A DNA stretch of 54,138 nucleotides from a virus: IMG/VR virus record IMGVR_UViG_3300031566_000048; one strand, written 5' to 3'. Of this stretch, positions 4,436 to 20,943 are shown piece after piece. The notes under the pieces were generated by a model, which saw nothing but the letters and a program-made list of their open reading frames with translations, was not told the DNA's origin and searched no databases. Within the stretch, counting starts at the first letter, position 1. Every line of letters starts with the position of its first letter. A program made the translations under genes and the position numbers.

Positions 4436-4454
4436 TAAAAGGAGACAAAAAATA

Positions 4455-4730
4455 ATGTATATAACTAGAAATAAAACTACAAAAAAAATGACTGGATTTG
4501 CAAAACGCATTCCAAAAATATTTGATGACAAAAAAGGTAAATATGTGCCTGATAAAAACTATGAAAAGATAGACCAAAAATCAAAAGAGTTACAAGATTT
4601 TTTAAATGGTACTGGCGATTATGAAAAACCTAAAAAACCAAATTATGATATAGAAAAACAGTTTGAAATACTAGAAAATGAAATACCTGCTTTAAAAAAA
4701 TATCGTAAATCGGTAAGGGAGGATAATTAA
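4455..4730 (+). CDS. Hypothetical Lys-rich protein
   Basis: ORF with 'aaaaggagac' RBS. Tightly packed with neighbours. Confidence 0.45.
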   Translation: MYITRNKTTKKMTGFAKRIPKIFDDKKGKYVPDKNYEKIDQKSKELQDFLNGTGDYEKPKKPNYDIEKQFEILENEIPALKKYRKSVREDN

Positions 4731-4732
4731 TT

Positions 4733-5092
4733 ATGGCAACAAGAGATGATAGTAGTTACACACAAGATAGAATTTTTAAATATACTGGAGTTAAAATATT
4801 AAGCGGGCAGACTGAAAGTGAAGCAATAGATTGTCTGGGTGGTGTTTTAGTAGGAATTAAAACTCCGTCTGCTTTAACAGGCACTTCATTTACTGTAAAA
4901 GTATCTGATGACGGGGTTTCTTATGTAGATTATTATAATGCTTTGGGTGCAAAAGTAACTATAACAGCAGGTGTAGATAGGCGTATAGGCATAGAGCCTG
5001 TTGATTTTGCAGGTATACAAAAAATAAAACTTGTTTCAAGTAGTGCAGAAGCAGCAGAAAGAGAACTTACTTTGTTTTTGAGAGGTATGTAA
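4733..5092 (+). CDS. Hypothetical protein in the virion module
   Basis: RBS 'agggaggataat'. Same strand and tightly packed. Confidence 0.5.
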   Translation: MATRDDSSYTQDRIFKYTGVKILSGQTESEAIDCLGGVLVGIKTPSALTGTSFTVKVSDDGVSYVDYYNALGAKVTITAGVDRRIGIEPVDFAGIQKIKLVSSSAEAAERELTLFLRGM

Positions 5093-5093
5093 T

Positions 5094-5459
5094 ATGCCAT
5101 TATTAAATTGTTTATTATGCGGTGGTGGGGATAGACCATTTTCACAGCAAAGTATATCAGGTGCTACCGATACTATTGACCCAACACTTGTAAATATAGA
5201 GTTAGTAGTTTCAAGCCCTACCACAATGACATCTACCCCTACTATTGCAAATGGAATTTATGATAATCAGCAGGTAATTATAAGGGGTAGTAATAACACT
5301 AATACTATTACATTGCAAAGTGTAACTAATTTAGGCGGTAGTAATTTATTTATGGACGGTGGAGTAGATATTGTTTTAGGCGAAAATGATTATATAGTTT
5401 TTCGTTGGAATAATACTACATCTAATTGGTGCGAGCAATCAAGGAGCGTAAATTCTTAA
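5094..5459 (+). CDS. Hypothetical protein in the virion module
   Basis: Starts 1 nt after the previous stop. Ser/Thr/Asn-rich. Confidence 0.5.
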   Translation: MPLLNCLLCGGGDRPFSQQSISGATDTIDPTLVNIELVVSSPTTMTSTPTIANGIYDNQQVIIRGSNNTNTITLQSVTNLGGSNLFMDGGVDIVLGENDYIVFRWNNTTSNWCEQSRSVNS

Positions 5460-5478
5460 TTTTAGGAGATAAAAATAA

Positions 5479-6630
5479 ATGTCTCAATATGATAAAACAA
5501 TGAGTAAATTTAACTCTACTGATACATCGGTAGGGTCTAGTATCGGCACAAAAGATATTAAATCAACAGCAGGATTTAATAATAATGGGTTCGTGCAAGA
5601 CGATTTAGAAGTATGGATTAAAGATGCTTCTGCTGTTAGCGGTTCAAAACTTACAAGAATAAATGATTTAAACTCTGTGTATGAAACTTTAGGAGATGCT
5701 GGAGACCAAATATTATTCGGTTCACCAGTACAATGTTGGGGAATATATAGTTCATTATTAACAGCTAAAAGTAACGAGCAATATATAGGTAAATATTATA
5801 GCTCAAGTTTAGCTGATTTAAAAGAAACTACATATATGAGTGTTGTGGATGAGTTTTTAAATCAAAATAAAACTAATGTATTTGAGGCTTTAGTTTCAAA
5901 TAACATTACAATGAATAAAAAAATAAGACTTGACTGGATGTCAAATACACCAAGTGGAATTTTAGATAAAATACCAGCAACTAATGATGGCGTTAATAGA
6001 TATTGGTGGGCGTTAGAAGTCCCTGTCGGTGGACTTACAACTACTCCAAGACTTATTGATACTGCGTATAGAGGTAGTGGATTATCTAAAATAGAATATA
6101 ATCAACAGGATGTTTATTGGGGTAATGCTAGATTACAAGACCAAAAAAATATTAATACTGATAATATTAGAACTCCCTCAGGTACGCCTGTTGTAAGCAT
6201 TGATATAACATCTACGCAAGTACAATTAGTTTACAATATGAGAAGTGCTTTAAATGATAATGTTGTATTTAGGTGGCAATTACCTGTAGGTATAGATACA
6301 TCAACTCCTATAGATATTGACTTTAGTTACATAGCTAATGCTGCTATAAATACTGCCGATATAAATATTGATATTAAAAAATTAACACAAGGTAGTATCG
6401 TAGGAGCAGGTGAAACATCTGATTTAAATCAAACGGAAAACATAAATATAACTGCAGGAAACACAATAAATTTATGTCATAATTTAGCAACTGATTTTGA
6501 TATATCGGATATGAAACCATTTGATATTTTATCAATTGAAGTAATAAGAACCGATAGTAATGGTGGTAGTTTTTATCCGTTACATTCTTGTATCAAACAT
6601 ACTCTATTTAAAATGGGGAAGTTTAGCTAA
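5479..6630 (+). CDS. Hypothetical large virion-module protein
   Basis: RBS 'taggagat'. 383 aa with no recognisable motif. Confidence 0.55.
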   Translation: MSQYDKTMSKFNSTDTSVGSSIGTKDIKSTAGFNNNGFVQDDLEVWIKDASAVSGSKLTRINDLNSVYETLGDAGDQILFGSPVQCWGIYSSLLTAKSNEQYIGKYYSSSLADLKETTYMSVVDEFLNQNKTNVFEALVSNNITMNKKIRLDWMSNTPSGILDKIPATNDGVNRYWWALEVPVGGLTTTPRLIDTAYRGSGLSKIEYNQQDVYWGNARLQDQKNINTDNIRTPSGTPVVSIDITSTQVQLVYNMRSALNDNVVFRWQLPVGIDTSTPIDIDFSYIANAAINTADINIDIKKLTQGSIVGAGETSDLNQTENINITAGNTINLCHNLATDFDISDMKPFDILSIEVIRTDSNGGSFYPLHSCIKHTLFKMGKFS

Positions 6631-6935
6631 TGTTACAAAGATTATTAACTTCAAGTTATAGTAATAGTGCTATAACAATTACATTGGCAGACGATGAGAG
6701 TGTTACTTTACCCCCTAGTAAAATAGGCAGAGGGTGGTTAATGGTAGGTGATGACGAGGAGTATTCAGATTTTAGATTTTCACAGAATGCAACAGTAACA
6801 TTATTTTCAAGTTCTGCTAATGTAATAAATTCAGATACAGATACTAACTTTTGTATTTTCGGTAGTGCTAATTCTGTGGTGTTAAAAAATAGACTTGGAG
6901 CTACTAAAGTTATAAAATATTTCTATTGGGTGTGA
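6630..6935 (+). CDS. Hypothetical protein
   Basis: ATG overlaps the upstream stop (TAATG). Confidence 0.5.
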   Translation: MLQRLLTSSYSNSAITITLADDESVTLPPSKIGRGWLMVGDDEEYSDFRFSQNATVTLFSSSANVINSDTDTNFCIFGSANSVVLKNRLGATKVIKYFYWV

Positions 6936-6945
6936 GGATAAAAAA

Positions 6946-7365
6946 ATGACTTTTGAAAATGTTATTGGAGTTTTAAGAAAACCGATAAAGTTTTCTAGTA
7001 TAACAAATTGGCTATTTAATAGAAAAGTAGGATTTAGAGAAGACGGCACTATAAGAAGTTGCGGTAGGGAATGTTATATTAACGGACAATGGAATAAAAT
7101 TTGTACTAAATATTTAACAGGAATGACAGGCACAAGTACTACTACTTTAGTACCTCACGGCATAAATAAAACAGATATATTGAGTGTAGAATGTGCTATA
7201 GATGACGGCATTAAATTTTGTAAATCAGAGTATAATTTAGTTCCTTCTACTTCAAATGGATTTAATTATGGTTGGGATAATACCCATATAATCATAGATA
7301 ATATAGGGAATATTTTTAAAGGAAAGGATTATAAAATAAAAATAGAGTATAAGAATGGCAGTTAG
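6946..7365 (+). CDS. Hypothetical protein
   Basis: RBS 'gaggataaaaaa' upstream. Confidence 0.5.
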   Translation: MTFENVIGVLRKPIKFSSITNWLFNRKVGFREDGTIRSCGRECYINGQWNKICTKYLTGMTGTSTTTLVPHGINKTDILSVECAIDDGIKFCKSEYNLVPSTSNGFNYGWDNTHIIIDNIGNIFKGKDYKIKIEYKNGS

Positions 7366-7452
7366 TTTTTTAGCAGTAGAAGTAAAAATTAAAATACTCT
7401 TGCTTTTTGCTGATTGAGTTATGAGCTGAAAGTAAGGGAAGGAGATAAGAAA

Positions 7453-7593
7453 ATGGCAGATGAAATAAAAGGATTAAAAGAGCATATAGAATGGCAAACA
7501 AAAGCTATAAAAGCTATTGCTGAAGCTCTTAAATTAAAGGGGTTTGATGTAAAGATTTCTGAACCACCTGAACCCCCTCCACCGCCAAACTAA
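7453..7593 (+). CDS. Small protein (46 aa) with a C-terminal poly-proline tail 'EPPEPPPPPN'
   Basis: Strong RBS 'aaggagataagaaaATG'. Below the size cutoff of the ORF track. Confidence 0.45.
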   Translation: MADEIKGLKEHIEWQTKAIKAIAEALKLKGFDVKISEPPEPPPPPN

Positions 7594-7597
7594 AATT

Positions 7598-8023
7598 ATG
7601 ATATTAATATTGCATATTACAGCGATTATATTAAAAAGTTTGCATACATTTTTTGATGGTGCAAGAATACAATGGTTTTTATTGGTAATAAATAGAAATA
7701 CCATTATACTTTTTTTAGCTTTAGCTTCTTATCTTTTGCTAAAAGCTTTATATAGTCGCTGTATGCAATTTAATAAACATATAGATGTAAAAGTCAAAAA
7801 CATACATTCTGATTTTTTATTTAATTTAAAAAGAATAGTTAATTTAAGTAGATTAGCTTTTGAATTTTGGCTTGTTTCTTTTATTTTCTCTAATACGGAT
7901 TTAATCCTTTCTTACTTTAAAATACAGATTTTTGCAATACTTTTGATTGCAGAACTTATACCTTATATTTATATTTTTATAAGGGCTAATAAAGAAATTA
8001 TAAAATGGTTAAGGGGATTATAA
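7598..8023 (+). CDS. Multi-pass membrane protein in the lysis-module neighbourhood
   Basis: Several long hydrophobic stretches, for example 'ILILHITAIILKSL', 'IILFLALASYLLL' and 'IFAILLIAELIPYIYIFI'. Confidence 0.5.
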   Translation: MILILHITAIILKSLHTFFDGARIQWFLLVINRNTIILFLALASYLLLKALYSRCMQFNKHIDVKVKNIHSDFLFNLKRIVNLSRLAFEFWLVSFIFSNTDLILSYFKIQIFAILLIAELIPYIYIFIRANKEIIKWLRGL

Positions 8024-8319
8024 AAATGTGTGCTGCTAAAGAATATGTAAAGAAAAACGGATTTAATATAAAAGCGATAATTAGTTTAATTGTAATAAGT
8101 AGTTTTGTTGTAAGTTGTTTTATGGCAATTGCTTTTTTTATATTTAACGCTCAAGGAGCTAATAAGAGAAGCAGAGAAAATAAAACTGAAATTTCCACCT
8201 TAAAACTAGATTTTAAAGAAGTTAAAGTAAAACAAGAAAATTTTGGAACTCAACAAACTAATATGTATGAAGATGTAAAAGAAATTCAAAAAGATATTAA
8301 GAGCCTTTTGAGAAGATAA
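8005..8319 (+). CDS. Single-pass membrane-anchored protein, spanin-like by position. Start may be 8026.
   Basis: One TM segment 'AIISLIVISSFVVSCFMAIAFFIF' followed by a charged coiled tail. Confidence 0.45.
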   Translation: MVKGIIKMCAAKEYVKKNGFNIKAIISLIVISSFVVSCFMAIAFFIFNAQGANKRSRENKTEISTLKLDFKEVKVKQENFGTQQTNMYEDVKEIQKDIKSLLRR

Positions 8320-8323
8320 AATT

Positions 8324-8336
8324 TAGTATAATAAAA
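8324..8336 (+). promoter_or_regulatory. 'TAGTATAATAAAA' -10 box placed 6 nt before the ATG at 8339 (leaderless-type promoter)
   Basis: TATAAT at 8327-8332. No Shine-Dalgarno sequence. The same 13-mer recurs at 8791-8803. Confidence 0.45.
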
Positions 8337-8338
8337 TT

Positions 8339-8776
8339 ATGAATTTATTTATAACTTCAAAAAGTCCTAAAAAATCTGCTAAATTTTTATCACAAGATAG
8401 ATTAAGATTAAATAAGCAAATATTAGAATGCAATCAAATTTTAGCTACAGCATTGCATTTAAACGGAGCAGATAAGCGTTTTATGCCATATAAGAAAAAT
8501 GGCGATAGATATAAACCTACTCACGAAAAACACCCTATTTGCAAATGGGTAGCAAGTAGTTTAGATAATTTTATGTGGGCTTTAGAATTTATGAACGAAC
8601 TTTGTAAATACAACCTAAAACACGCTTGCAAAGCTAATATTCCATTACTTTCTTTTACAGGAAATTGTTTTATTAAATCAAATGGCTTTAATGGATTTGA
8701 AAACTGCACTCCATATAAAGATTTACCAGTGTTTAATGCGTATAAAAAACACTTGGCGGATAAATGGAAAAAATGA
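8339..8776 (+). CDS. Hypothetical conserved protein
   Basis: 145-aa ORF containing 'YKPTHEKHPICKWV'. No confident family assignment from memory. Confidence 0.5.
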   Translation: MNLFITSKSPKKSAKFLSQDRLRLNKQILECNQILATALHLNGADKRFMPYKKNGDRYKPTHEKHPICKWVASSLDNFMWALEFMNELCKYNLKHACKANIPLLSFTGNCFIKSNGFNGFENCTPYKDLPVFNAYKKHLADKWKK

Positions 8777-8790
8777 AAAACTACAAAAAA

Positions 8791-8803
8791 TAGTATAATA
8801 AAA
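8791..8803 (+). promoter_or_regulatory. Second copy of the 'TAGTATAATAAAA' -10 box, 8 nt before the ATG at 8808
   Basis: TATAAT at 8794-8799. No Shine-Dalgarno sequence upstream of the endolysin gene. Confidence 0.45.
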
Positions 8804-8807
8804 CAGT

Positions 8808-9239
8808 ATGATTATAACCCCACATTTCAAGTATAAAGAATTAGTACATACAGACCACACTCAATTTAAACAACAAAATTACGAGCAGGGAAAGGCTTTT
8901 ATAGGAAATATGCGTATGCTTTCCTATTTCTATTTAGAGCCTATACGGGCTAGATATGGCGTTCCTATTGATATAACAAGTTGCTTTAGGTGTTTAGATT
9001 TAAACAGATTTATTAAAAGTAAGGATAGTAGCCAACATCCAAAATGCGAGGCAGTTGATTTTAGGGTTAGAAAAACCGAAAGCAAAAAAGTATTTGATTA
9101 TATCCAATTAAAAGAATGCTTTAAGTGGGGACAGTTGATTTTATATCCCGATGATAATTTTATACATTTAAGTTTTCCAACTTTGGAAGAAAATATGCAA
9201 GTAAAGATATTTGAAAATGGGAAGTATACTAGATTGTGA
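8808..9239 (+). CDS. Endolysin, peptidase M15 family (Peptidase_M15_3-like cell-wall peptidase)
   Basis: 'FKYKELVH...PIRARYGVPIDITSCFRCLDLN......SQHPKCEAVDF......FIHLSF' matches the metal-ligand pattern H..D..H of the M15 family. Confidence 0.8.
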   Translation: MIITPHFKYKELVHTDHTQFKQQNYEQGKAFIGNMRMLSYFYLEPIRARYGVPIDITSCFRCLDLNRFIKSKDSSQHPKCEAVDFRVRKTESKKVFDYIQLKECFKWGQLILYPDDNFIHLSFPTLEENMQVKIFENGKYTRL

Positions 9240-9988: not shown

Positions 9989-10050
9989 TCTCACTTCTAC
10001 GCATAGTCAAGTGAGTTAACCCCGTAGGAATATAAAAAAAACCTACGGGG
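9989..10050 (+). terminator. Two stem-loops closing the late/lysis transcription unit
   Basis: 'ctcactt..aagtgag' (9989-10016) and 'ccccgtagg-13nt-cctacgggg' (10020-10050). The T-tract is weak. Confidence 0.45.
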
Positions 10051-10093
10051 ATTTAAAAAATGGCAACTATATAGTTATTTGACCCAAAAAAAA

Positions 10094-10252
10094 TTAATAG
10101 GTATTAACATATCCACTAACTTCCATATTTCCATAGGTGTTTATAGAAGAATTACCGAAGTAGAACTTAATTAAAACCAATACAAGCATAAGCAACGCTA
10201 TAAAAATTAGGCATTCTTTAATAATTTTGTATATTTTCAAAAACTTATTCAT
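10094..10252 (-). CDS. Small hydrophobic ORF (52 aa) at the end of element B
   Basis: 'MNKFLKIYKIIKECLIFIALLMLVLVLIKFYF...'. Starts 3 nt after the passenger stop. No clear RBS. Confidence 0.3.
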   Translation of the reverse strand: MNKFLKIYKIIKECLIFIALLMLVLVLIKFYFGNSSINTYGNMEVSGYVNTY

Positions 10253-10254
10253 AA

Positions 10255-10860
10255 TTATTTTTCCTTTTTATCGTGTTCTATTTGTTTTGGCTTAACTGCT
10301 TCTAGTATATTCAAATGTTGCTTTTGTGATATTTTTTGTCTCTTTACTTTTTCTATCAAATATTTTGGAAATTTTTTATATATATATTCAAATGAAAACC
10401 AATTTCTAAATTCAGGCAATGATTTATCAGGATACGCCCACGCTGGTTGTGGGTTACTATCTGATTGAGGATAATATTCTGGATAGTTATGTTCGTATGG
10501 TGTTCTTTCTCCATATTTTGAGTTTAGTTTTTTTTCTTTCCAATATTTACCCCAATTTATACCTACACTTAAATCTGGTATAGTTTTGTCATTCACAATT
10601 ACACTTCCCCTTATAAGCGTAACTATCAAGCCATTCATTTCCCTAAAAACACTAAAAAATCCGTTTGGAACTTTATCAAAATTTAAATCAACTCTATCTA
10701 AAAAATATTTCCACTGATTTAATTTTTCAGTTTGGTATACATATCCTACTTTATTGTAAATATATTGTCTAAACGATATTCTTGCTAATATTCTGTAATT
10801 TTGTATTTCTTCTTTTCTAGGTTCTGCGTCCTCATATGCAAAATATTCTAACAATGCCAT
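10255..10860 (-). pseudogene. C-terminal fragment of the element B P63C-like passenger gene, split by insertion of element A
   Basis: The open frame extends upstream of the annotated Met to the element A boundary. It joins in frame to 13001..13396 when 10891..13000 is removed. Confidence 0.8.
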
Positions 10861-10882
10861 ACATACTGCTTCAGGATAAGCA

Positions 10883-10890
10883 TTATATTT
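10883..10890. repeat. 8-bp target-site duplication 'TTATATTT', left copy
   Basis: Identical octamer abuts both ends of element A (10883-10890 and 12993-13000). Confidence 0.9.
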
Positions 10891-10931
10891 GGGATTTATA
10901 TACTTAACTAGCCAAAAAAACTAAAAAACAC

Positions 10932-10960
10932 TTGACTAGCCATTATTTTTATGTTACGAT
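10932..10960 (+). promoter_or_regulatory. Promoter of the element A transposase
   Basis: TTGACT (10932-10937), 17-nt spacer, TACGAT (10955-10960). Confidence 0.5.
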
Positions 10961-10986
10961 ATGTTTATATTAGGAGGATACATATT

Positions 10987-11928
10987 ATGATTAAATTTAG
11001 TCTAATTGAATTTTTTAAGAAGTTTCCAAGTGAAGAGGATGCCACACTTTATTTTGAAAAATTAAGATGGGGAAATGATATTACTTGTCCTTATTGTAAA
11101 AGCAAGTCTATATCAGAATGTGTAAGGCCAATGCCATATAGATGTCGTGATTGTCGCAAACATTTTAGTGTTAGGGTTGGAACTATACTATCAGAGTCAA
11201 AATTACCACTTCAAAAATGGTTATTGGCCATATACATACTTACTAATTCTAAAAAGGGTATTTCTTCAATTCAGTTGGCCGAGTATTTAGAAACTACTCA
11301 AAAAACAGCTTGGTTTTTAGCTCATAGAATAAGGGAAACTTGGTTGCAAGAAAATGATAAACTTGATGGAGTTATTGAAATTGACGAAACATACATTGGG
11401 GGAAAAGAGGGCAATAAACATCAGAACAAGAAAACATTAAATACACAGGGTAGAAGTACAAAAACAAAAATGGCTATACTTGGAGCACTAGAAAGACGAG
11501 GAAAAATAAAGGCCAAGATAGTAAATAATACAAATGAAACTACTATAAATTACTTTGCTAATAATAATATTAAAAAATCTGCAATACTTAATACTGATGA
11601 GTATAGAAGTTATAATCAACTTAAAAATCAGGGTTTTATACACAAAAGAGTAAAACATTCAGTAAAAGAATATGTATATGGCCAATATCATACAAATGGA
11701 ATAGAAAGTTTTTGGGCTTTGTTAAAAAGAGGGTATTATGGAATTTATCATCATATGAGTTCAAAACATTTACAGAGATATATAGATGAGTTTTCTAACA
11801 GGCATAATATGATAGAAACCTCTGGAATTGATAAAATAAAAGTCACATTTAATAAGGGTATAGGTAAGAAACTAACCTATAGGGAGCTAATAAATGACAA
11901 AAAAAAAGAAAATTATAGAACCAATTAA
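10987..11928 (+). CDS. IS1595-family (ISXO2-like) DDE transposase
   Basis: N-terminal zinc ribbon 'CPYCKS...YRCRDCRKHFS', 'GISSIQLAEYL..TQKTAWFLAHRIRE', and DDE motifs 'IEIDETYIGG', 'NTDEY', 'TNGIESFW'. Start moved to the ATG after RBS 'taggagga'. Confidence 0.9.
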   Translation: MIKFSLIEFFKKFPSEEDATLYFEKLRWGNDITCPYCKSKSISECVRPMPYRCRDCRKHFSVRVGTILSESKLPLQKWLLAIYILTNSKKGISSIQLAEYLETTQKTAWFLAHRIRETWLQENDKLDGVIEIDETYIGGKEGNKHQNKKTLNTQGRSTKTKMAILGALERRGKIKAKIVNNTNETTINYFANNNIKKSAILNTDEYRSYNQLKNQGFIHKRVKHSVKEYVYGQYHTNGIESFWALLKRGYYGIYHHMSSKHLQRYIDEFSNRHNMIETSGIDKIKVTFNKGIGKKLTYRELINDKKKENYRTN

Positions 11929-12934
11929 AGCATCATCTGAAGATGTTGTAAAAGCTATTGTTGATGTGGGTAAATCAATGGAAGAAAAAAAATATCCAAG
12001 AGCTTTAACTAGTGATGGTGTTATATCTCCTATCATTAAAGCAGAATGTTGGATATTAGATAATGGTAAATATATAGTTCGTGGCCGTGGTTTTATTAGA
12101 ACATTAACAGGGGTTGAGGATGACAAGAAATTATCAGGCCAAAGATTTAAAAGACTGTTAAATAGTAAAGCATTGTGCAATATTTTATCAGAAGAATTAA
12201 GAAACAAGCTAAGTATTCCAATTGATTTTTACACAAAAAAAGGGAAAATGGAGTGGGGATATGATGCTACGGCTTTACCACAAATGGCAAAGGATTTTTG
12301 GAAAGCATACCTAACTAAAAAAATAAAAGAGGGAGATACCTACTTTTATGAGGCCAAAAATTCGGAAAAATTAGTTAACGCTTTCTTAAATTTAAGCATT
12401 ACCACTCATATAGAACAAATTACAGGATTTAACCCAAAGGCAAGAGAATTTGCCGAGGCATTTTTTAGAGAAAATTTTGTCAGAGAATTACCATCAGGCC
12501 AAAAAAGGAAATTTGAATATATTGGTTTCTTTGATGGTATGTATAAAATATATGGTCTTATTAGAAAAAAAGATAAACCTTGGCAAAATCCTTCCTTTTT
12601 TGGAAAATTTATAAACAAATATATATATACTCCACTAGATGTTATAGTTACTAATGGAAAAATAAAAACAAGGGATATATTAAGAAAACAATTAAAAGAA
12701 AAAAGAGGTAAAAGCGGAAGAACTTTATATTCTTTTATACAAGAAAAGGGAGAGGCCAAGTTTTTTGGCCATCTTGGTATGCTCACACATCTTATGAAAG
12801 TTTCTGATAACAAAGATGAATTTGATGAGTTATTTAACCAGTTTTTTACAAATTTATTACCAACGAAAGATTTATTTGAGAAAGAGCATAGACGGGATGT
12901 TTTTAGTAGGATTATAAATAAAAAGGGACAATAG
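11894..12934 (+). CDS. Passenger protein, P63C-domain-like (tentative)
   Basis: RBS 'agggag'. Start overlaps the transposase 3' end. 'AECWILDNGKYIVRGRGFIRTLTG' resembles the N-terminal motif of phage P63C-family proteins. Confidence 0.55.
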   Translation: MTKKKKIIEPIKASSEDVVKAIVDVGKSMEEKKYPRALTSDGVISPIIKAECWILDNGKYIVRGRGFIRTLTGVEDDKKLSGQRFKRLLNSKALCNILSEELRNKLSIPIDFYTKKGKMEWGYDATALPQMAKDFWKAYLTKKIKEGDTYFYEAKNSEKLVNAFLNLSITTHIEQITGFNPKAREFAEAFFRENFVRELPSGQKRKFEYIGFFDGMYKIYGLIRKKDKPWQNPSFFGKFINKYIYTPLDVIVTNGKIKTRDILRKQLKEKRGKSGRTLYSFIQEKGEAKFFGHLGMLTHLMKVSDNKDEFDELFNQFFTNLLPTKDLFEKEHRRDVFSRIINKKGQ

Positions 12935-12946
12935 ATATTTATCAAT

Positions 12947-13396
12947 TTAGTAATGTAAATTTAAACTTTGGCTAGTTAAGTATATAAATCCCTTATATTT
13001 AATACCTTTTTTTGTTACTGATATAAAAAGATGCTCGCCATTGTAATTTGTATCTCTCAATATTTGTTTAATTTTTATAGTTCTAGTGTTGTCATCTCTA
13101 CCGTCCCATTCTTTATTAACCCTGTATAGAGTTTTTCTATGTACTCCACAAATTTTAGCAAGACCAGTCTCTGTTAAATAAGGTATTCCATTTTCTAATA
13201 CTCCCATTATTATACCATCTACATCTTTTTCTACATCCACTATAAAAGAAAACTCGTCTTGACCTGCGCCCAAATTCGGTGTTTTGCGGGTGTTTTTAAT
13301 TAATTTCCCCTCTGAAACAATGGGTGCGCCCAGTTCGCTTTTTTTCACTCTAGCAACACGATTTAAAAATTCTTCAAATTTTTTTTTCTTATCCAT
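12947..13396 (-). pseudogene. N-terminal fragment of the element B passenger gene. The last 16 codons are read from the element A inverted repeat.
   Basis: '...GIIMGVLENGIPYLTETGLAKICG...VTKKGIKY' and then out into the IR ('KGFIYLTSQSLNLHY*'). Confidence 0.8.
12993..13000. repeat. 8-bp target-site duplication 'TTATATTT', right copy
   Basis: See 10883-10890. Confidence 0.9.
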
Positions 13397-14306
13397 TTAT
13401 AAGCTCCTTATACTGTAATCTCTTACCACTTGTTAAACTAAAAAACTCATTTATCCGTTCCTGTATACTGTAACCCCTTGTATTCCAACGAAAACAAAAC
13501 ATATCGGCATATTTTTGTATATGCTTTTTACTAGCAGAGTGATATATTCCATTTATTGTTCTTTTAAAATGAGCAAATGAACCCTCTATATTATTTGTAG
13601 TAATCCCGCCTTTGCCTACATACTCTTTAAAGGTATGGTTAACTATTTTTCTTTTATCTTTTGGTAAGAACTTATATATAGGGCTTTCGTCTGTATGTAT
13701 TATAGCATTATCAGATATATTACTTTCAATAATTGGCTTTACATTGCCTTTAGTGGCTTTCTCTATGCTTTGATATTTAATACTGCCTTTTTTCTCTACC
13801 ATACCCAGTATGGGCTTTTTATCGCCTAATATGGTGTTATATTCTTTGGTGCGTTTGTTTTTATGCTTGTTTGTTTCCTTACCGCCTATATATGTTTCGT
13901 CAACCTCTACAATGCCTTTTAACGGCTTTTTAAATGAATTACTATCTACCGCATATCTTAACCTTTGTAAGATATACCACGCTGTTTTTTGTGTTACTTT
14001 AATGTCTTTTGAAAGCTGTAAACTGGATATACCCTTTTTATGTGAAGTCATTAAATAGATTGCCATAAACCATTTTTTTAATGAAATTTTACTATCTTCA
14101 AATATAGTGCCTATTTTAACACCAAACTTTTTTCTACACTCCGCACATTTATGAGTTTTATTATTAGAAAAATGATAGATTTTTTTACTGTTACAAAACG
14201 GACAGTAAAAACCATCTTTGTATATTATTGCAGTGAGATATTTTATACACTTTAATTCGGTATCAAAGGTATTTATTACTTCTAAAAAACTGTTAAATTT
14301 TTTCAT
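13389..14306 (-). CDS. IS1595-family DDE transposase (element B), a divergent paralogue of 10987..11928
   Basis: 'CPFCNS...HKCAECRKKFG', 'GISSLQLSKDI..TQKTAWYILQRLR', 'VEVDETYIGG', 'HTDES', 'NNIEGSF'. Confidence 0.9.
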   Translation of the reverse strand: MKKFNSFLEVINTFDTELKCIKYLTAIIYKDGFYCPFCNSKKIYHFSNNKTHKCAECRKKFGVKIGTIFEDSKISLKKWFMAIYLMTSHKKGISSLQLSKDIKVTQKTAWYILQRLRYAVDSNSFKKPLKGIVEVDETYIGGKETNKHKNKRTKEYNTILGDKKPILGMVEKKGSIKYQSIEKATKGNVKPIIESNISDNAIIHTDESPIYKFLPKDKRKIVNHTFKEYVGKGGITTNNIEGSFAHFKRTINGIYHSASKKHIQKYADMFCFRWNTRGYSIQERINEFFSLTSGKRLQYKELING

Positions 14307-14401
14307 TTTTATAGCTCCCTTACTCTTAACTAAATATATTATATCTTAATTAGCTGGGTCTGTAAAGTATATAGTTTCCTTGTTTTATATAAAACTAGCA
14401 C

Positions 14402-14430
14402 TTGACATATATAAGGTATATGTGTAGTAT
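14402..14430 (+). promoter_or_regulatory. Early promoter, upstream member of a tandem pair
   Basis: TTGACA (14402-14407), 17 nt, TAGTAT (14425-14430). Confidence 0.55.
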
Positions 14431-14457
14431 ATATGTATAGTTATTTTAAAATAACAC

Positions 14458-14539
14458 TTGACAAGAAATAAAAAAACATTTAAAATATTAGTGTAGTAAG
14501 AAAGTAATAAAAAAACTGAAACCAAAAGGAGAAAATAAA
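14458..14539 (+). promoter_or_regulatory. Early promoter plus conserved 5' leader, paralogous to 21034..21113
   Basis: TTGACA (14458-14463), 17 nt, TAAAAT (14481-14486). The leader 'ttagtgtagta.gaaag.aa.aaaaaaactgaaaccaaa.ggaga' is shared with the 21034 copy. Confidence 0.65.
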
Positions 14540-14725
14540 ATGAAAGTAAAAATTTTATATAGATATCGCGACTTGGAATTGAATTACTATAAACTTGAAA
14601 GCATTATTACAAATAGTCGGTATAAAACTATCTATGAAACTCAAATAAACCTGTTTAAAATACTACCAAAAAAAATATTGGAATTACCAAAGCTATTCAT
14701 ACGGGATATTGTGAAAATAAAATGA
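14540..14725 (+). CDS. Hypothetical early protein
   Basis: RBS 'aaaaggaga'. First gene after the promoter. Confidence 0.5.
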   Translation: MKVKILYRYRDLELNYYKLESIITNSRYKTIYETQINLFKILPKKILELPKLFIRDIVKIK

Positions 14726-15249
14726 AAAAAATAACAATAATAATAGCTATTATATTTTGTGTTTGTTTTTCACAAGCTAAAAATATAATTAGCTTAAATG
14801 TAGGTGGTGCAATCCCTGTAAGTTGGGATTACGGAAGTGCTTTTTATGCAGGTTTTTCGCAAGGTTATAGTATCTCAAAGTATTTTAATTTAGGGTTTGA
14901 TTTATCTTATAACTTTAACCATAGACAGTATGAAAATAATCTAAAAAGAGAAATTAAAATATTAAATTTAATTCCTTATGTAGAATATAATTTGTCTATT
15001 AACAGGCATTTAATATATTCATATTTTGGTTTTGGAATTAGTTTTATAAATATGGACGATGATACTACTATACCCGACATAGATGATATGACTAAACGAT
15101 ATTTTACTGGCATTTTTGGAATAGGGTATATGTATCAATGGTTAGAGAATATATACATAGGTTTTGATTTAAGATACCAACATATATTTCAAAGCGGTGG
15201 TATAAAGAATAATATTATACCGACTGCTAAAATATCTTATATTTTTTAA
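14722..15249 (+). CDS. Outer-membrane beta-barrel protein (phage moron)
   Basis: Signal peptide 'MKKITIIIAIIFCVCFSQA'. Alternating hydrophobic strands rich in aromatic and Gly residues. C-terminal 'AKISYIF' ends in Phe, as in OMP beta-signals. Confidence 0.7.
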   Translation: MKKITIIIAIIFCVCFSQAKNIISLNVGGAIPVSWDYGSAFYAGFSQGYSISKYFNLGFDLSYNFNHRQYENNLKREIKILNLIPYVEYNLSINRHLIYSYFGFGISFINMDDDTTIPDIDDMTKRYFTGIFGIGYMYQWLENIYIGFDLRYQHIFQSGGIKNNIIPTAKISYIF

Positions 15250-17260: not shown

Positions 17261-17954
17261 AATTGCTGTTAATAAAATGGTTCAAGCTGAATTAGAAAAG
17301 AAAAAAAACAATATTAATAAAATTGAACAAAAAAAAATAAAAGAACCAGTATGGTGTGAAAAATGTGGATTTTCAAAAACAGGCGATATATGTCAAAAAT
17401 GCGTTGAAATTGAAAAAGAGGTACAAGTTATGGCTAATGACAAAAAAAACGCTACAATAGCAAGTTTGGGCGGTTTAAGAGCATATGAGAAGTATACTGT
17501 TAATAATTTTAATGATAAAAATATTTTAAAAGATTGTTTAGGATATCCAAACATAAATATATATATAACTGGGGCAGTTGGAACGGGTAAAACTCATTTA
17601 GGAACAGCATTAATAAGAAAGTGCGAAAATTTTAATCGCTTTAGTAGTATACAAATTTGCCGGGAATTAAGAAAAACCCAAAGTAGTGCTAATCCTGCAC
17701 TATCAGAAGAAAAACTAATTAAAAACTTAAGTGAAATTCCTTTAATGATAGACGATTTCGGTGTTGAAAAAACCACAGAATATACTAAACAGACTTTATA
17801 TGAAATTATTGATAAAAGATATGAGTTAGGAAATGGCGGTTTAATTATAACCAGTAACTTTGAACTTGGAAAAAATAGAATTTCTAGCAGGTTATATGAA
17901 ATGTGTAAAATTATCAAATTAGACGGAAATGATTTTAGGTTAAAAAAACTATGA
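17235..17954 (+). CDS. DnaC/IstB-like AAA+ helicase loader
   Basis: Walker A 'TGAVGTGKTHL' and Walker B 'LMIDDFG'. RBS 'aggag' before the ATG at 17235. The track start at 17205 is also possible. Confidence 0.8.
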   Translation: MTLENSHIEIAVNKMVQAELEKKKNNINKIEQKKIKEPVWCEKCGFSKTGDICQKCVEIEKEVQVMANDKKNATIASLGGLRAYEKYTVNNFNDKNILKDCLGYPNINIYITGAVGTGKTHLGTALIRKCENFNRFSSIQICRELRKTQSSANPALSEEKLIKNLSEIPLMIDDFGVEKTTEYTKQTLYEIIDKRYELGNGGLIITSNFELGKNRISSRLYEMCKIIKLDGNDFRLKKL

Positions 17955-20479
17955 AAGAATACCTAAATAAAGTGCATAATTGCGATTGTTTGGAGCTGTT
18001 AAAAAAGTTGCCTGATAATAGTGTTGATTGTATTGTAACCGACCCACCTTACGAATTAGGATTTATGAATAAAAAATGGGATAGCACAGGCATTTCTTAT
18101 AATGTAGATTTATGGCGTGAATGCTTGCGTGTACTTAAATCAGGCGGTCATTTACTTGCTTTTGGGGGAAGTAGAACATATCATAGAATGGCTTGTGCTA
18201 TAGAAGATGCGGGCTTTGAAATAAGAGACCAAATACAATGGTTGTATGGATGTATAAGTGAGGATACTGAAATATTAACCATTAATGGTTGGAAGCATTA
18301 CTATAAAGACATTGATAAAAATCCCGTATTATGCTATAGTATAAAAGATAATAGTTTTAAATTTGAAATACCAAAAAGAAAATTTTATTATGAAAACAAA
18401 TATCCCGCATACCATATTAAATCAGATTTTACAAACCAAATTGTCTCTACAGGACATAACTGTATTATTGAACGAAACGGAAAAAAAGTATTTAAAAAAG
18501 CCGATGCACTTCAATGCAAAGAGAGCGTACCCTTTTTGGAAAGTTTGCAGGAATTGCCTGAAACCATACCTTTGTTACACAAAGGAACAAGCATTAAGAA
18601 ACAAGACTTGCTCAAAGAATTGTGCAGGAAAACTTGTATCAAAAATAAGACCAAAAAGAAAAATAAAATATTTAGTAGAAAAAATATGTTTAATATGTGG
18701 AACATCATTTTTAGCAAGACGAGACAAAATATCAAAATATTGTTCTTACAAATGCAACGGTATGATAAGAGGACAGGAGTGGAAAAAACACGCACACAAG
18801 GGCAGATTTGCTTGGAGCAAAGAAGCAGAGGAAAGTTGCAAAAAGAAAATGACTGGCTCAAAAAATCCAGCTTGGAAAGGTGGAGTAACTTATTTCAAAA
18901 AAAAAGGCAATTATACTGGCGTAGTTTATGTCAGGTGTCCACAGAAATATTTAAGTATGGCACGCAAAGACGGATATGTTATGCAACACAGATTAATAAT
19001 GGCACAGCATTTGAAAAAAATTTTAAAAAGAACGGAAGTTGTGCATCATATAGACCACAATCCGAGCAACAACAAAATAAACAATCTAATGCTATTTCCA
19101 ACAAACAAAGCACACAAAATATACGAAGGACAAATGCGGAAGTTAAACAAATAAATTATAAAGGTAAAATGTGGTGCATTGAAACTGAAAGTGGCGCATT
19201 TGTTGCTAGGCGTAAGGGAAAAATATTTATTACAGGAAACAGTGGCTTCCCTAAAAGTTTAAATATATCAAAAGCGATAGATAAAAAGTTTGGAGCGAAG
19301 AGGGAAGTTTTTAAAAAATCAGTTTCATATCCTGATAGTGATTGTTGGGGTATATCTAATCCCACAACTGTAAAAAATAATTCAAGTTATATTGTTAATA
19401 CTAATAATATAAATGCTGGTAAGGGAATGAGATATGATAGTAAACCATCAACCCCCGAAGCCAAACAATGGGACGGTTGGGGTTCAGCTCTTAAACCAGC
19501 ACACGAGCCAATATGTATGGCACGAAAACCACTATCAGAAAAAACAATTGCGGATAATGTTTTAAAATATGGCACTGGGGGAATAAATATAGATGCTTGT
19601 CGTATAAATGTTTCAAATGAAGATTTGGAGCAAAATATAAAAAGAAGAGGAACTAAATATTTAAATAAAAAAAGTAGAATAACTGGAAATGAAGTTACTA
19701 ATTTTCCAATAGGTTTATGTAAAACTATATCAAAACAAGGACGCTTTCCCTCAAATGTAATATTATCACATCACAATGAATGTGTGGAAATTGGGGTTAA
19801 AGAGGTTAATGGTATAAGTGGTGGAACAAATAAAACTGGTAATAATTTTATGGGAAAATATAAACAAGGACATAAACCATTTAATTATGCTAAAAACGGC
19901 AAAGAAATAGTATCTCATTACGAATGCCACCCTGATTGCCCTATTGGTATTTTGGATAAGCAGAGTGGGTTAAGACCTAGTAGCGGAAGAATTGGGGAAA
20001 GTGGAAGTGGAATTGGTGCTATTAATGGAATTTATCAAAAAGGTATGGGTGGTAAAAGAATGGATACTTATTTTGACATAGGCACAGCATCCCGCTTTTT
20101 TTATTGTGCTAAAAGTTCACGGGCAGAAAGGAATAAAGGTTGTGAAAATTTGGAAGATAAAAAACAGAGGGCGAATTATAAGGTTAGTGGAGGTCGTTCA
20201 TTTAAAAATGGAGAATGGATAGAAAATAATTCTAAACCAAAATTAAGACAAAATTTTCATCCCTGTGTTAAACCAAAAAAACTAATGCAATATCTTATTA
20301 AACTTATTACACCACCTAACGGAATTGTACTTGATATTTTTTCAGGTTCTGGTAGCACTTTGGTAGCTTGCAAAAGTTTAGGATTTGATTTTATAGGCAT
20401 TGAAAAGGAACAAAAGTATTGCCGTATAGCAGAGGCTCGCATTGCCAAAGAACAGGTACAAGGAAAATTTGATTTATGA
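17951..20479 (+). CDS. DNA methyltransferase (N6_N4_Mtase family, DPPY motif, probably N6-adenine) interrupted by a 330-aa intein
   Basis: 'VTDPPY' and 'GGHLLAFGG'. The conserved 'WLYG/SGFPKS' motif is split by the insert. C-terminal 'FHPCVKPKKLMQYLIKLITPPNGIVLDIFSGSGST' is the AdoMet motif. Confidence 0.9.
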   Translation: MKEYLNKVHNCDCLELLKKLPDNSVDCIVTDPPYELGFMNKKWDSTGISYNVDLWRECLRVLKSGGHLLAFGGSRTYHRMACAIEDAGFEIRDQIQWLYGCISEDTEILTINGWKHYYKDIDKNPVLCYSIKDNSFKFEIPKRKFYYENKYPAYHIKSDFTNQIVSTGHNCIIERNGKKVFKKADALQCKESVPFLESLQELPETIPLLHKGTSIKKQDLLKELCRKTCIKNKTKKKNKIFSRKNMFNMWNIIFSKTRQNIKILFLQMQRYDKRTGVEKTRTQGQICLEQRSRGKLQKENDWLKKSSLERWSNLFQKKRQLYWRSLCQVSTEIFKYGTQRRICYATQINNGTAFEKNFKKNGSCASYRPQSEQQQNKQSNAISNKQSTQNIRRTNAEVKQINYKGKMWCIETESGAFVARRKGKIFITGNSGFPKSLNISKAIDKKFGAKREVFKKSVSYPDSDCWGISNPTTVKNNSSYIVNTNNINAGKGMRYDSKPSTPEAKQWDGWGSALKPAHEPICMARKPLSEKTIADNVLKYGTGGINIDACRINVSNEDLEQNIKRRGTKYLNKKSRITGNEVTNFPIGLCKTISKQGRFPSNVILSHHNECVEIGVKEVNGISGGTNKTGNNFMGKYKQGHKPFNYAKNGKEIVSHYECHPDCPIGILDKQSGLRPSSGRIGESGSGIGAINGIYQKGMGGKRMDTYFDIGTASRFFYCAKSSRAERNKGCENLEDKKQRANYKVSGGRSFKNGEWIENNSKPKLRQNFHPCVKPKKLMQYLIKLITPPNGIVLDIFSGSGSTLVACKSLGFDFIGIEKEQKYCRIAEARIAKEQVQGKFDL
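18251..19240 (+). other. Intein (residues 101-430 of the methyltransferase)
   Basis: Starts with Cys in 'C-ISEDTEILT' and contains 'STGHNCII'. Ends '...MWCIETESGAFVA...KIFITGN' followed by the +1 extein Ser of SGFPKS. Confidence 0.8.
18363..19154 (+). CDS. HNH homing endonuclease encoded in the +1 frame within the intein. Start uncertain: TTG 18363, ATG 18390 or ATG 18504.
   Basis: 'CRNC..CSKNC', 'CLICG...YCSYKCNG', 'KNPAWKGG', 'DGYVMQHRLIMAQHL...VVHHIDHNPSNNKINNLMLFPTNKAH'. Confidence 0.8.
   Translation: MKYQKENFIMKTNIPHTILNQILQTKLSLQDITVLLNETEKKYLKKPMHFNAKRAYPFWKVCRNCLKPYLCYTKEQALRNKTCSKNCAGKLVSKIRPKRKIKYLVEKICLICGTSFLARRDKISKYCSYKCNGMIRGQEWKKHAHKGRFAWSKEAEESCKKKMTGSKNPAWKGGVTYFKKKGNYTGVVYVRCPQKYLSMARKDGYVMQHRLIMAQHLKKILKRTEVVHHIDHNPSNNKINNLMLFPTNKAHKIYEGQMRKLNK
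20458..20479 (+). repeat. 22-bp direct repeat 'acaaggaaaatttgatttatga', copy 1
   Basis: Identical to 20830-20851. Includes the methylase stop and the next ATG. Confidence 0.9.
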
Positions 20480-20820: not shown

Positions 20821-20829
20821 AAAATTAGC

Positions 20830-20851
20830 ACAAGGAAAATTTGATTTATGA
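20830..20851 (+). repeat. 22-bp direct repeat, copy 2
   Basis: Identical to 20458-20479. Confidence 0.9.
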
Positions 20852-20943
20852 AAACAATAAAACTAGACATACTTTTATTTTGGATATTAGCCTTAACTTT
20901 TTGCCTGACTTTTTGGGTTAAAGTTATTAGCTTTATTTTATGA
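20848..20943 (+). CDS. Tiny hydrophobic ORF (31 aa)
   Basis: 'MKTIKLDILLFWILALTFCLTFWVKVISFIL'. Its ATG lies inside repeat copy 2. Confidence 0.3.
   Translation: MKTIKLDILLFWILALTFCLTFWVKVISFIL

Follow-up and report, generated by a model that had tools for sequence, protein, structure and literature searches.

A phage genome in which two transposase genes lie beside a gene cut into two pieces raises the question of how such an arrangement was formed, and whether its history can be read from the DNA. The reading developed here, which we consider highly probable, is that two nested IS1595-family elements with ISNwi1-like ends are present, each carrying a leader-fused, defence-type cargo gene, and that one of them (A) was inserted in the bstA gene of the other (B).

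The phage genome and the position of the island

The window, i.e., the whole stretch of 54,138 nucleotides that was analysed, is a phage genome that was assembled as a circle, its termini overlapping by 127 bp. Among its products are terminase, portal, capsid, sheath, tape measure, a Mu-like baseplate and endolysin, and the genome hosting both elements is that of a myovirus, a tailed phage, of about 54 kb; no integrase was found in it. Every convincing gene outside the island is on the plus strand, in agreement with the earlier claim that minus-strand coding is confined to the island. The island is bordered by the following features:

9990..10050, plus strand: two hairpins located 3' of holin-like genes (RNA fold -26.8 kcal/mol, z = -3.6)
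14402..14486, plus strand: two tandem sigma-70-like promoters (TTGACA-17-TAGTAT and TTGACA-17-TAAAAT; repeat D10)

Located directly to the left of element B, the hairpins resemble terminators of the late/lysis operon; a simple terminator scan missed them because their loop exceeds 8 nt. The promoters, directly to the right of B, start the rightward early genes. The island had been placed between the lysis-module terminators and the first early promoter, and this location stands. It had also been stated that active-looking IS elements are uncommon in phage genomes of this size, and IS1595 transposase homologues appear in just 6 of 50,697 GenBank phage records, all with identities of 40% or less.

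Element A

10891..12992, plus strand: element A, IS1595 family, 2,102 bp, with a transposase gene and a leader-P63C gene, delimited by repeats and target duplication
10891..10916, plus strand: left terminal inverted repeat, transposase-proximal
12967..12992, minus strand: right terminal inverted repeat
10883..10890: left copy of the target-site duplication, TTATATTT
12993..13000: right copy of the target-site duplication, TTATATTT
10932..10960, plus strand: promoter-like site inward of the left repeat edge (TTGACT-17-TACGAT with TG upstream; consensus match only)
10987..11928, plus strand: tnpA, 313 aa, with zinc ribbon, DDE domain and intact D/D/E
11894..12934, plus strand: gene 2, 346 aa, with leader, KilA-N-like N-terminal region and P63C-type C-terminal region
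about 11894-11962, plus strand: leader of gene 2, MTKKKKIIEPIKASSEDVVKAIV, from the leader alignment

The limits previously given for A, its perfect 26-bp terminal inverted repeats (GGGATTTATATACTTAACTAGCCAAA) and its 8-bp duplication were all reproduced exactly. Both transposases of the island match Pfam DDE_Tnp_IS1595 and Zn_ribbon_IS1595 and NCBIfam transpos_IS1595, as expected from their earlier assignment to this family; the identity between the two is 40%, and both conserve D, D and E, plus K at E+7. Both elements presumably belong to the ISNwi1-type subgroup of the ISfinder table. The usual stop codon of tnpA has been lost, so that its product is extended by 10 codons and the overlap with gene 2 reaches 35 nt. 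Taking into account its perfect repeats, intact duplication and intact transposase, element A looks recent and active. Its sister elements include L003, L011, L033 and L050.

Gene 2 of A matches phrog_2384 (E 5e-36) and, in Foldseek, Mx8 p63 (E 5e-5). Its family comprises 291 cluster representatives, and 58 of the 60 relatives sampled match Pfam P63C (PF10546), a model that gene 2 of A itself does not reach at E <= 0.01; PADLOC gave no match for it. The transposon leader is present in only 2 of 151 sampled members of the P63C family. Comparison with BstA by blastp gives an E value of 0.25, and the N-terminal, KilA-N-like regions of P63C and BstA proteins show distant homology (hhalign 91.6%, E 8e-7). 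Judged by these matches, gene 2 of A encodes a P63C-family protein having in common with BstA only the N-terminal KilA-N-like region, and its role as defence cargo is proposed through guilt by association. The preliminary description had regarded the second genes of the two elements (343 and 346 aa) as comparable; they encode different protein types, and their similar length is a coincidence.

The interrupted gene

12947..13396, minus strand: 5' part of bstA, leader plus most of the KilA-N-like region, 137 aa including duplicated codons
within 12947..13396, minus strand: B-lineage leader, MDKKKKFEEFLNRVARVKK, at the start of this 5' part
10255..10890, minus strand: 3' part of bstA, codons 133-343 plus stop, BstA_C domain

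The 5' ORF continues 12 codons into element A before reaching a stop. When A and one copy of the duplication (10891-13000) are removed, 13396..13001 joins 10890..10255 in frame, yielding a 343-aa minus-strand ORF (...KKGIKY|NAYPEAVCMALLEYFAYE...) whose junction agrees with the BstA-family consensus '..NAYTEPVCMALLEYYAF..', with zero residues gained or lost. The in-frame fusion that had been predicted for this deletion is, then, exact. The restored ORF is recognised by PADLOC as BstA (E 5e-112) and by phrog_6287 (E 4e-95), and the 201-aa 3' fragment matches PF26567 BstA_C. These matches identify the interrupted gene, at the level of homology, as one encoding a BstA abortive-infection protein. 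Since the protein is split after residue 137, inside its conserved core, its inactivation by element A is predicted.

Recurrence in separate assemblies

Repeated elements carry a general risk of misassembly in metagenomes, and the nesting could in principle have been made by joining reads from repeated IS copies. However, ENA ERZ27256827/8 and Logan SRR8554643 contain identical copies of the island, and a further copy in JGI Ga0307379 / IMG-VR 3300031565, with 99.3% identity (32 SNPs over 4.65 kb), has the same junctions. At least three to four metagenome assemblies (two ENA, one Logan, one JGI) thus contain the nested arrangement, which rules out an artefact. Moreover, removal of A restores the ORF exactly and its duplication is exactly 8 bp. 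The probability of a chimera is thus negligible, and this explanation is effectively refuted; the principal earlier observation, one IS1595-family element inside the second gene of another in a phage genome, is the same in independent assemblies.

Element B

10062..14379, minus strand: element B, IS1595 family, with a transposase gene and a leader-BstA gene, delimited by the end motif and with the architecture of L017, L019 and L070
10062..10087, plus strand: cargo-distal terminal inverted repeat, GGCAACTATATAGTTATTTGACCCAA (18/24 against 14356-14379)
14354..14379, minus strand: transposase-proximal terminal inverted repeat, GGAAACTATATACTTTACAGACCCAG (18/24 against the distal end)
10094..10252, minus strand: 52-aa hydrophobic ORF inside B, 3' of bstA, with no family match
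13389..14306, minus strand: tnpB, 305 aa, D/D/E retained
14338..14366, minus strand: promoter-like site overlapping the proximal repeat and facing tnpB (TTTACA-17-TATAAT, 11/12; consensus match only)

Without A, element B measures 2,208 bp; A and the duplicated 8 bp bring it to 4,318 bp. Its right repeat had been located at 14346-14369, the reverse complement of which matches 10062-10085 at only 2 of 24 positions. The best partner of 10062-10085 in the whole window is 14356-14379, with 18/24 (runner-up, 16/24), and B therefore ends at 14379 and not at 14369. The description of its repeats as imperfect, at 18/24, was correct, while the right end was 10 bp off. The end motif GGNAWYTATATASWTWW occurs exactly 4 times in the 54-kb window, always at a predicted element end, with 0.01 occurrences expected. 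The stop of tnpB overlaps the start of bstA by 8 nt (ATAAATGGATAA), with an AAGGAG Shine-Dalgarno within the last tnpB codons.

It might be argued that B is no transposon at all but a relic that can no longer move, or a module domesticated by the phage. Its repeats are imperfect, no target duplication was found at its flanks, TAAAAAAT and TTGTTTTA, and its transposase is the most divergent of the set, with 35-40% identity to the rest. However, the tnpB ORF is intact, and relatives at 58-68% identity are located in many settings that have nothing to do with each other, among them a chromosome (ileS-lpxD-nusA) and phage-like contigs. Furthermore, L070, a sister of B borne by another phage, has the same asymmetry between proximal and distal ends and yet is flanked by a perfect TTATTATT duplication; its proximal repeat matches that of B at 22/26 positions and its distal repeat at 21/26. 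Imperfect ends are, from these alignments, apparently typical of the B lineage, and a relic or domesticated module seems quite improbable.

A family of elements with leader-fused second genes

Searches with the repeat sequence recovered some 25 sister elements, from diverse bacteria and from at least 3 other phage contigs (members include L003, L011, L017, L018, L020, L023, L033, L042, L046, L058, L059, L063-L067 and L070). Perfect AT-rich 8-bp duplications are found in 19 of the sisters. Across the family, gene 2 always lies directly 3' of the transposase gene, overlapping its stop by 8 nt, with an embedded Shine-Dalgarno, in nearly all cases, and the first 20-25 aa or so of its product are always a conserved leader. 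Of the BstA homologues looked up, 3/3 of those bearing the leader have a transposase gene upstream, vs 0/3 of the leader-less ones. Codon identity in the leader is 0.81, 0.80 and 0.44 at positions 1, 2 and 3, respectively, a pattern indicating conservation at the protein level. The bodies fused to it are BstA, KilA-N/BstA_C, RhuM/PDC-S05, P63C, and D12 (Dam) methylase paired with a HaeIII-type nuclease; extra cargo includes SoFic, MazF and SocA. Cargo-less and MITE-like derivatives also occur, and cargo-less elements of the B lineage retain the leader as a 38-43-aa ORF. From these comparisons, both elements belong to a large, widespread family in which the architecture is fixed, with two genes, the second of them fused to a leader.

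The persistence of the leader across unrelated gene bodies and two transposase lineages, and its survival in cargo-less elements, could mean that gene 2 is a working partner of the transposase, with the leader docking it to the transposase and the DNA-binding body regulating transposition or selecting targets. The tight coupling of the two genes would fit this possibility, as would the 62-73% identity among transposases whatever the type of body, and the fact that the families of all gene-2 bodies identified so far (BstA, KilA-N, RhuM, P63C and Dam methylase) act on or bind DNA, according to their annotations. However, the bodies are mutually unrelated defence-type proteins and include a methylase paired with a restriction enzyme, which fits cargo better; derivatives without cargo exist; and, in prophages, BstA works on its own as an abortive-infection protein (PMC8585504). 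A partner role is considered unlikely, and we favour cargo.

How the nesting arose

It is proposed that both elements would occupy the sole dispensable gap of the phage genome, from the late-operon hairpins to the early promoters. Each consists of terminal repeats of about 25 bp beginning GGnAnnTATATA, a zinc-ribbon/DDE transposase and a gene 2 translationally coupled to it through a Shine-Dalgarno and ATG in the last transposase codons, the product of which joins a lineage-conserved leader peptide to a defence-type DNA-binding protein. The cargo of B is a BstA homologue, and that of A a P63C-family protein, a distant N-terminal relative of BstA. A would have transposed, by cut-and-paste or copy, into the AT-rich 8-mer TTATATTT within bstA, duplicating it. 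The cargo may act in anti-phage defence or inter-phage competition, and A may be found in bstA mainly since insertions elsewhere in such a tightly packed genome would be lethal.

The preliminary description held that the insertion history could be reconstructed base by base. This is true of A, with its exact duplication. It is not true of B, for which there is no duplication, and for which IMG/VR and a 5.8-billion-protein collection yielded neither an empty site nor a copy with intact bstA; therefore, only the insertion of A can be reconstructed in this way, and that of B is deduced from its architecture. The missing duplication also leaves some room for a B::A composite formed elsewhere (e.g., in a host chromosome) that entered as one 4.3-kb unit, or for acquisition of B by recombination; either scenario would contradict the sequence of events 'B into phage, then A into B'. 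All sampled phage copies are already nested, with no intermediate in the databases, and the SNPs between the two phage variants concentrate in tnpB (19 within 420 bp), as for recombination patches. Against this, no copies of B or B::A were found outside this phage, and the perfect repeats and duplication of A, beside the unrelated flanks of B, fit B being older at the site. We regard such an origin as somewhat unlikely, and tentatively retain the order in which A followed B.

Relation to known systems

The nested insertion is real, and the elements are of a known type, IS1595 elements carrying passengers. According to ISfinder, the IS1595 family reportedly has an ISNwi1-type subgroup with passenger genes ('ISNwi1+'). 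Its members share with A and B a transposase of about 300 aa with N-terminal zinc ribbon, DDE domain and K at E+7, ends of the form GGnnnnTAT, 8-bp duplications and, with extra genes, lengths of 2.1-4.2 kb. The nature of their passengers was not stated in the literature searched, in which defence cargo, leader fusion and phage recurrence of IS1595 elements were likewise absent. Unlike in ISNwi1-type elements, the slot directly after the transposase gene holds here a gene of defence type that continues in frame from a conserved leader, this leader also stands alone as a small ORF, and several members are in phage genomes.

P63C-domain proteins (Mx8 p63; Pfam PF10546) have reportedly been described as a group, which gene 2 of A resembles by family membership and by its structural match to Mx8 p63, differing from most of them in its transposon leader. 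Tn7-like and other transposons are said to carry defence cargo, and resemble the present elements in transporting genes for restriction-modification, abortive infection and toxin-antitoxin systems; they are, however, large and multi-gene, with dedicated target selectors, whereas those described here are about 2 kb long, encode one transposase and offer only one slot for cargo, fused to the leader.

BstA is known as an abortive-infection protein of prophages (Owen et al. 2021, PMC8585504), in a paper that does not mention transposases. The BstA models cover almost the whole of the restored ORF, which has the invariant residues of the family and the same two domains, a KilA-N-like N-terminus and BstA_C. 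Unlike the prophage gene, a moron, it belongs to a transposon, encodes an additional leader at the N-terminus and is disrupted, and its carrier phage has no detected integrase. Finally, ISSag10 carrying lnu(C) is an IS1595-family element with a resistance passenger (PMC10782964), in which the transposase gene also adjoins the passenger gene; unlike in A and B, the passenger confers antibiotic resistance and the element is without a phage carrier.

The nested island and its setting

The phage genome is circularly assembled, with about 54,011 unique bp and a 127-bp terminal overlap (1-127 = 54012-54138), and these identical termini make the assembly circular or, alternatively, terminally redundant; in ENA, the contigs of this phage measure 54,152 bp. 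Large terminase, portal, major head, sheath, tape measure, Mu-type baseplate, M15 endolysin and GTA-type holin genes were found, as well as early genes for O-like, DnaC-like and RecE/RecT functions. No integrase was detected among the scanned phage proteins, and the closest GenBank terminases share less than 40% identity with that of this phage. The island is composed of two elements, one inside the other:

10891-12992, plus strand: element A, an IS1595-type transposase gene (tnpA) followed by gene 2 (P63C family, 346 aa)
10062-14379, minus strand: element B, a transposase gene (tnpB) and bstA, the latter interrupted by element A

The island had been described as the sole minus-strand coding of the genome, placed exactly in a gap between terminators and early promoters. 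Indeed, the other long ORFs without a better overlapping ORF all lie on the plus strand, and the gap is limited by two hairpins (9990-10050) on one side and two strong promoter-like sites (14402-14486) on the other. The island is base-for-base the same in three other assemblies, two from ENA and one from Logan, and it is 99.3% identical in a JGI/IMG-VR contig keeping all four junctions; the nested island is not an artefact. The search for empty sites that had also been proposed gave nothing in IMG/VR, using exact patterns with A removed, or with B removed and a 0-30-nt gap allowed. No GenBank phage matched the island in Megablast, and a search for relatives of the adjoining holin-like gene returned the same phage alone, without any related phage lacking the island.

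Family assignment and boundaries of the two elements

Both transposases belong to the IS1595 family, as the preliminary description had proposed, according to Pfam PF12762 (DDE_Tnp_IS1595; E 4e-42 for A and 1e-34 for B), PF12760 (N-terminal IS1595-type zinc ribbon; 4e-9 and 8e-10) and NCBIfam NF033547 (202 and 194 bits, cut-off 75). They share 40% identity and conserve the D, D, E residues, with a lysine at the seventh residue past E (catalytic region IESFWALLK in A, IEGSFAHFK in B), and in both elements terminal inverted repeats flank the transposase gene, as expected for the family. Elements of the ISNwi1 group, as classified in ISfinder, have GGnnnnTAT ends, K or R seven residues past E, 8-bp duplications and optional passenger genes. 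The A/B ends (GGGATTTAT, GGCAACTAT, GGAAACTAT) fit GGnnnnTAT, and the lysine past E and the passenger genes are present as well, so that A and B are taken here as putative members of the ISNwi1 subgroup of IS1595. A short motif, GGNAWYTATATASWTWW, is common to all four ends; its four occurrences in 54 kb (expected 0.01) are all located there. PGAP-style names in the plasmid collection call such transposases just "IS1595 family transposase", and no description of ISNwi1 passengers appeared in the literature searched.

The structure reported for element A is confirmed in every detail. Its inverted repeats are perfect (26/26, 10891-10916 against 12967-12992), it is bordered on both sides by an identical 8-bp direct repeat, TTATATTT, which is the target-site duplication expected for IS1595, and deletion of 10891-13000 restores a 343-aa minus-strand ORF whose junction (..KKGIKY/NAYPEAVCMALLEYFAY..) equals the BstA-family consensus residue for residue.

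In the case of element B, the claimed 18/24 match between its inverted repeats stands, whereas the right repeat had been misplaced, the coordinates first assigned to it matching at 2/24 positions. Instead, 10062-10085 pairs with 14356-14379, where 18/24 positions are identical, the unique best match within the window; thus, B spans 10062-14379. It has no 8-bp target duplication, its flanks (TAAAAAAT and TTGTTTTA) being identical at 1/8 positions, a feature also missing in some sister elements (L019, L026, L073). Another boundary, based on a longer inverted match (10051-10086 / 14355-14390), does not give a duplication either and was discarded.

Relatives of the B transposase show 58-68% identity. 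One of them, on a contig also encoding a head-tail connector (L070/L071), is a transposase (67% identical to that of B) plus P63C element with duplication TTATTATT, and its ends differ from one another just as those of B do. Proximal (transposase-side) ends of B and L070 match at 22/26 positions and distal (cargo-far-side) ends at 21/26; the imperfect repeats of B are typical of its lineage and not a sign of decay. The association of B-type elements with cargo was established through this transposase lineage, since the nearest BstA homologues (57-62% identity) have no adjoining transposases. Between bstA and the distal repeat, B contains a 52-aa hydrophobic ORF (10094-10252), whereas in L017 and L019, sisters that also carry BstA, this interval measures just about 57 bp.

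The interrupted bstA gene

BstA gathers at replicating phage DNA. The restored gene of B is a full-length BstA homologue (PADLOC PDLC02356, E 5e-112, residues 46-334; phrog_6287, E 4e-95), keeping 42 invariant columns of the family, and its C-terminal fragment matches PF26567 (BstA_C). In the phage, the gene is split past residue 137 by the 2,110-bp insertion, and this in every sampled copy. An intact version was absent among 5.8 billion clustered proteins, the best hit after the 201-aa fragment itself being 62% identical.

BstA is a prophage protein that blocks the replication of competing phages, and a short DNA element (aba) at its own 5' end, the sequence of which is not conserved across BstA variants, neutralises it in cis (PMC8585504). 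A phage-borne abortive-infection gene of this kind could be harmful to its own carrier without a working immunity element. Loss of BstA might itself have been selected.

The second gene of element A

To our knowledge, no member of the large P63C family has a known function. The gene 2 protein of A has no Pfam match at E ≤ 0.01, including PF10546, and no model in NCBIfam or PADLOC. It matches phrog_2384 (E 5e-36), and the P63C domain (PF10546) is present in 58 of 60 sampled proteins among the 291 relatives obtained from a full scan of 1.84 billion representatives. Its AlphaFold model (pLDDT 85.7) matches p63 of Myxococcus phage Mx8 in BFVD (E 5e-5), with weaker matches to Bro-N/KilA proteins, and no relative exists in the PDB by sequence or fold. 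Homology of the protein to bona fide members of the P63C family is thus supported.

The P63C family and BstA are homologous over their N-terminal ~130 residues (hhalign profile-profile, 91.6%, E 8e-7), their C-terminal halves being unrelated. This homology was revealed by the profile-profile comparison alone: blastp between A gene 2 and the restored B gene was not significant, and a P63C profile against a lone BstA sequence gave 2.6% probability in hhalign. In prophage regions of IMG isolate genomes (L006/L007, about 5692-8372), a P63C-family gene directly precedes a homologue of BstA that shares 37% identity with the restored gene, without transposase or repeats nearby; thus, both families co-occur outside transposons too.

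Sister elements and their cargo

A sister element on the viral contig L003, with a transposase 54% identical to that of A, has perfect 25-bp repeats (GGGAACTATATACATAACTAGCCAA), duplication ATTAAATA, and a P63C gene plus a MazF-like gene. A degenerate-repeat scan returned 17 loci in 185,579 species genomes and 28 in a metagenome collection, and the complete elements measure 2.1-3.75 kb. Among the named genome records, alpha- and beta-proteobacteria prevail, with Heliobacteriaceae and Spirochaetota also represented. Perfect 8-bp duplications flank 19 distinct elements (A and 18 sisters), every duplication being at least 75% A+T, also where genome G+C is 60-65%. In nearly all elements gene 2 overlaps the transposase stop by 8 nt, and AAGGAG lies within the codons of the conserved transposase C-terminus (..TYKELIN).

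Table. Gene 2 of sister elements (locus handles)
BstA: L017, L018, L019, L025, L039, L042, L046, L050, L059, L064-L067
KilA-N plus BstA_C: L020, L026
RhuM (PADLOC candidate PDC-S05): L023, L058
P63C: L003, L011, L028, L033, L063, L070
D12 adenine methylase, followed by a HaeIII-type endonuclease: L043; partial copies L047, L052

Some elements carry extra cargo, namely SoFic-like Fic, MazF or SocA/Panacea. Transposases associated with differing cargo are 62-73% identical, indicating that cargo has been swapped among close relatives. In L043 (2-2838), the leader described below is fused to the D12 adenine methylase, with the HaeIII-type restriction endonuclease next, so that an insertion sequence of just about 2.8 kb carries a restriction-modification system in full.

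Two short non-coding derivatives, each with two family-type terminal repeats, were observed in a Heliobacteriaceae MAG, one of 136 bp (L029, 5895-6030) with duplication CTTTTTAT and another of 61 bp (L032, 4630-4690) without duplication; both look like MITEs of the A/B family.

The leader peptide

Whatever their body, gene-2 proteins share the same start of about 25 residues, MPKK(T)DKIIEPI[DN]ASFDDV..[IL]V, encoded with the gene-2 start within the last transposase codons in both A and B. The leader of B (MDKKKKFEEFLNRVARVKK) has the canonical 8-nt overlap, while in A (MTKKKKIIEPIKASSEDVVKAIV) the transposase stop has been lost, lengthening the overlap to 35 nt. Pairwise identity of the leader at codon positions 1, 2 and 3 is 0.81, 0.80 and 0.44, so it is the peptide, and not the DNA, that is conserved. 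Among BstA homologues it appears in 16 of 120, among P63C relatives in 2 of 151, and it is not a general part of either family. All three leader-bearing BstA genes looked up lie behind an IS1595 transposase, with repeats and duplication, whereas the three leader-less ones have neither transposase nor repeats.

In L072, L073 and L074/75, the transposase is followed just by a 38-43-aa ORF overlapping its stop. This small ORF, the N-terminus of the B BstA and that of the L070 P63C protein have in common the motif ..FEE..NR.ARV.., similar to the ..SFDDV.. core seen in the other lineage. Taking into account this shared motif, the leader is best read as a small second ORF that these insertion sequences possessed ancestrally, and with which cargo proteins became fused in frame.

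The L073 element (3408-7643; 4.2 kb, B lineage) holds, besides its 39-aa leader ORF, a GmrSD_N/HNH nuclease and an EcoRI-type methylase, and its flanks (TTAAAGAA and CATAAGAA) match at 6/8 positions.

Insertions in phages and origin of the nesting

Active-looking IS elements had been considered uncommon in a phage genome of this size, in agreement with the presence of A-transposase homologues in 6 of 50,697 GenBank phage records, none above 40% identity. In spite of this rarity, at least four distinct phage contigs carry insertions of such elements, all bordered by a clean target duplication, among them IMG/VR contig L003, TARA contig L065 (duplication ATTTAATA) and the L070 contig; L072 and L073 are also phage-like in look. 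The L065 contig contains a terminase gene with an intein (7993-9044; Intein_splicing, precomputed Pfam).

By analogy with established DDE insertion sequences, the transposase would bind the ~25-bp ends and insert the element at AT-rich 8-mers via staggered cuts, gene 2 being produced by translational coupling. Nested insertions are common in bacteria. In the simplest account, B or its ancestor would have occupied the one intergenic gap where the phage tolerates extra DNA, and A would have landed later in bstA because this is among the few sites where insertion spares the phage. The claim that the insertion history can be reconstructed base by base holds for A, with exact restoration of the ORF, and fails for B, where the duplication is missing; B may lack it owing to a deletion next to the element, to recombination, or to arrival in the phage with A already nested inside.

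The kind of element is already known as an ISfinder group. Not found in the literature searched, which contained no link of IS1595 to BstA, KilA-N, RhuM or P63C, are the defence nature of the cargo, the fusion to a leader together with the free-standing form of the latter, and the repeated presence in phage genomes. Some of the smallest known autonomous transposons carry anti-phage genes (BstA, RhuM/PDC-S05, restriction-modification and, by association, P63C), and their insertions in phage genomes offer a direct route by which defence genes can pass from bacteria to phages and back. Fusion to the leader suggests that cargo is captured in a simple, cassette-like manner, P63C proteins gain a testable role as defence genes, and the nesting has naturally knocked out an abortive-infection gene carried by a phage, a situation usable to ask if BstA harms its carrier. 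It might be speculated, with little likelihood in our opinion, that the leader, free-standing in the cargo-less relatives, is a docking tag tying any protein fused to it to the transposase. Since these proteins would bind DNA or sense phages, as in the case of BstA at replicating phage DNA, the elements would then be phage-seeking transposons, directing their own insertion into the genomes of infecting phages, travelling with them to new hosts and equipping them with genes for abortive infection or restriction.

Other features of the phage genome

Compared with L001, a JGI variant of the same phage, 19 of the 32 island differences fall within 420 bp of tnpB (13761-14178), a cluster resembling a recombination patch and not evenly spread divergence, and element A (2.1 kb) has one difference. 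The early-promoter region (14385-14553) consists of TTGACA promoter units in direct repeat and differs in length by about 125 bp between the window and L001; the repeat copy number appears to vary between phage variants. The second ORF past these promoters (14722-15249) has a weak precomputed match to the outer-membrane beta-barrel domain PF13505, which hints at a Gram-negative host; no tRNA genes, sought as a host clue, were found in the phage. A stretch of 2 kb (20820-22820) has no plus-strand ORF above 69 aa, corresponding to many tiny genes or non-coding DNA, and 17951-20479 encodes an 842-aa protein with DNA methyltransferase (N6_N4_Mtase) matches at both ends, a length unusual in phages with genomes this small.
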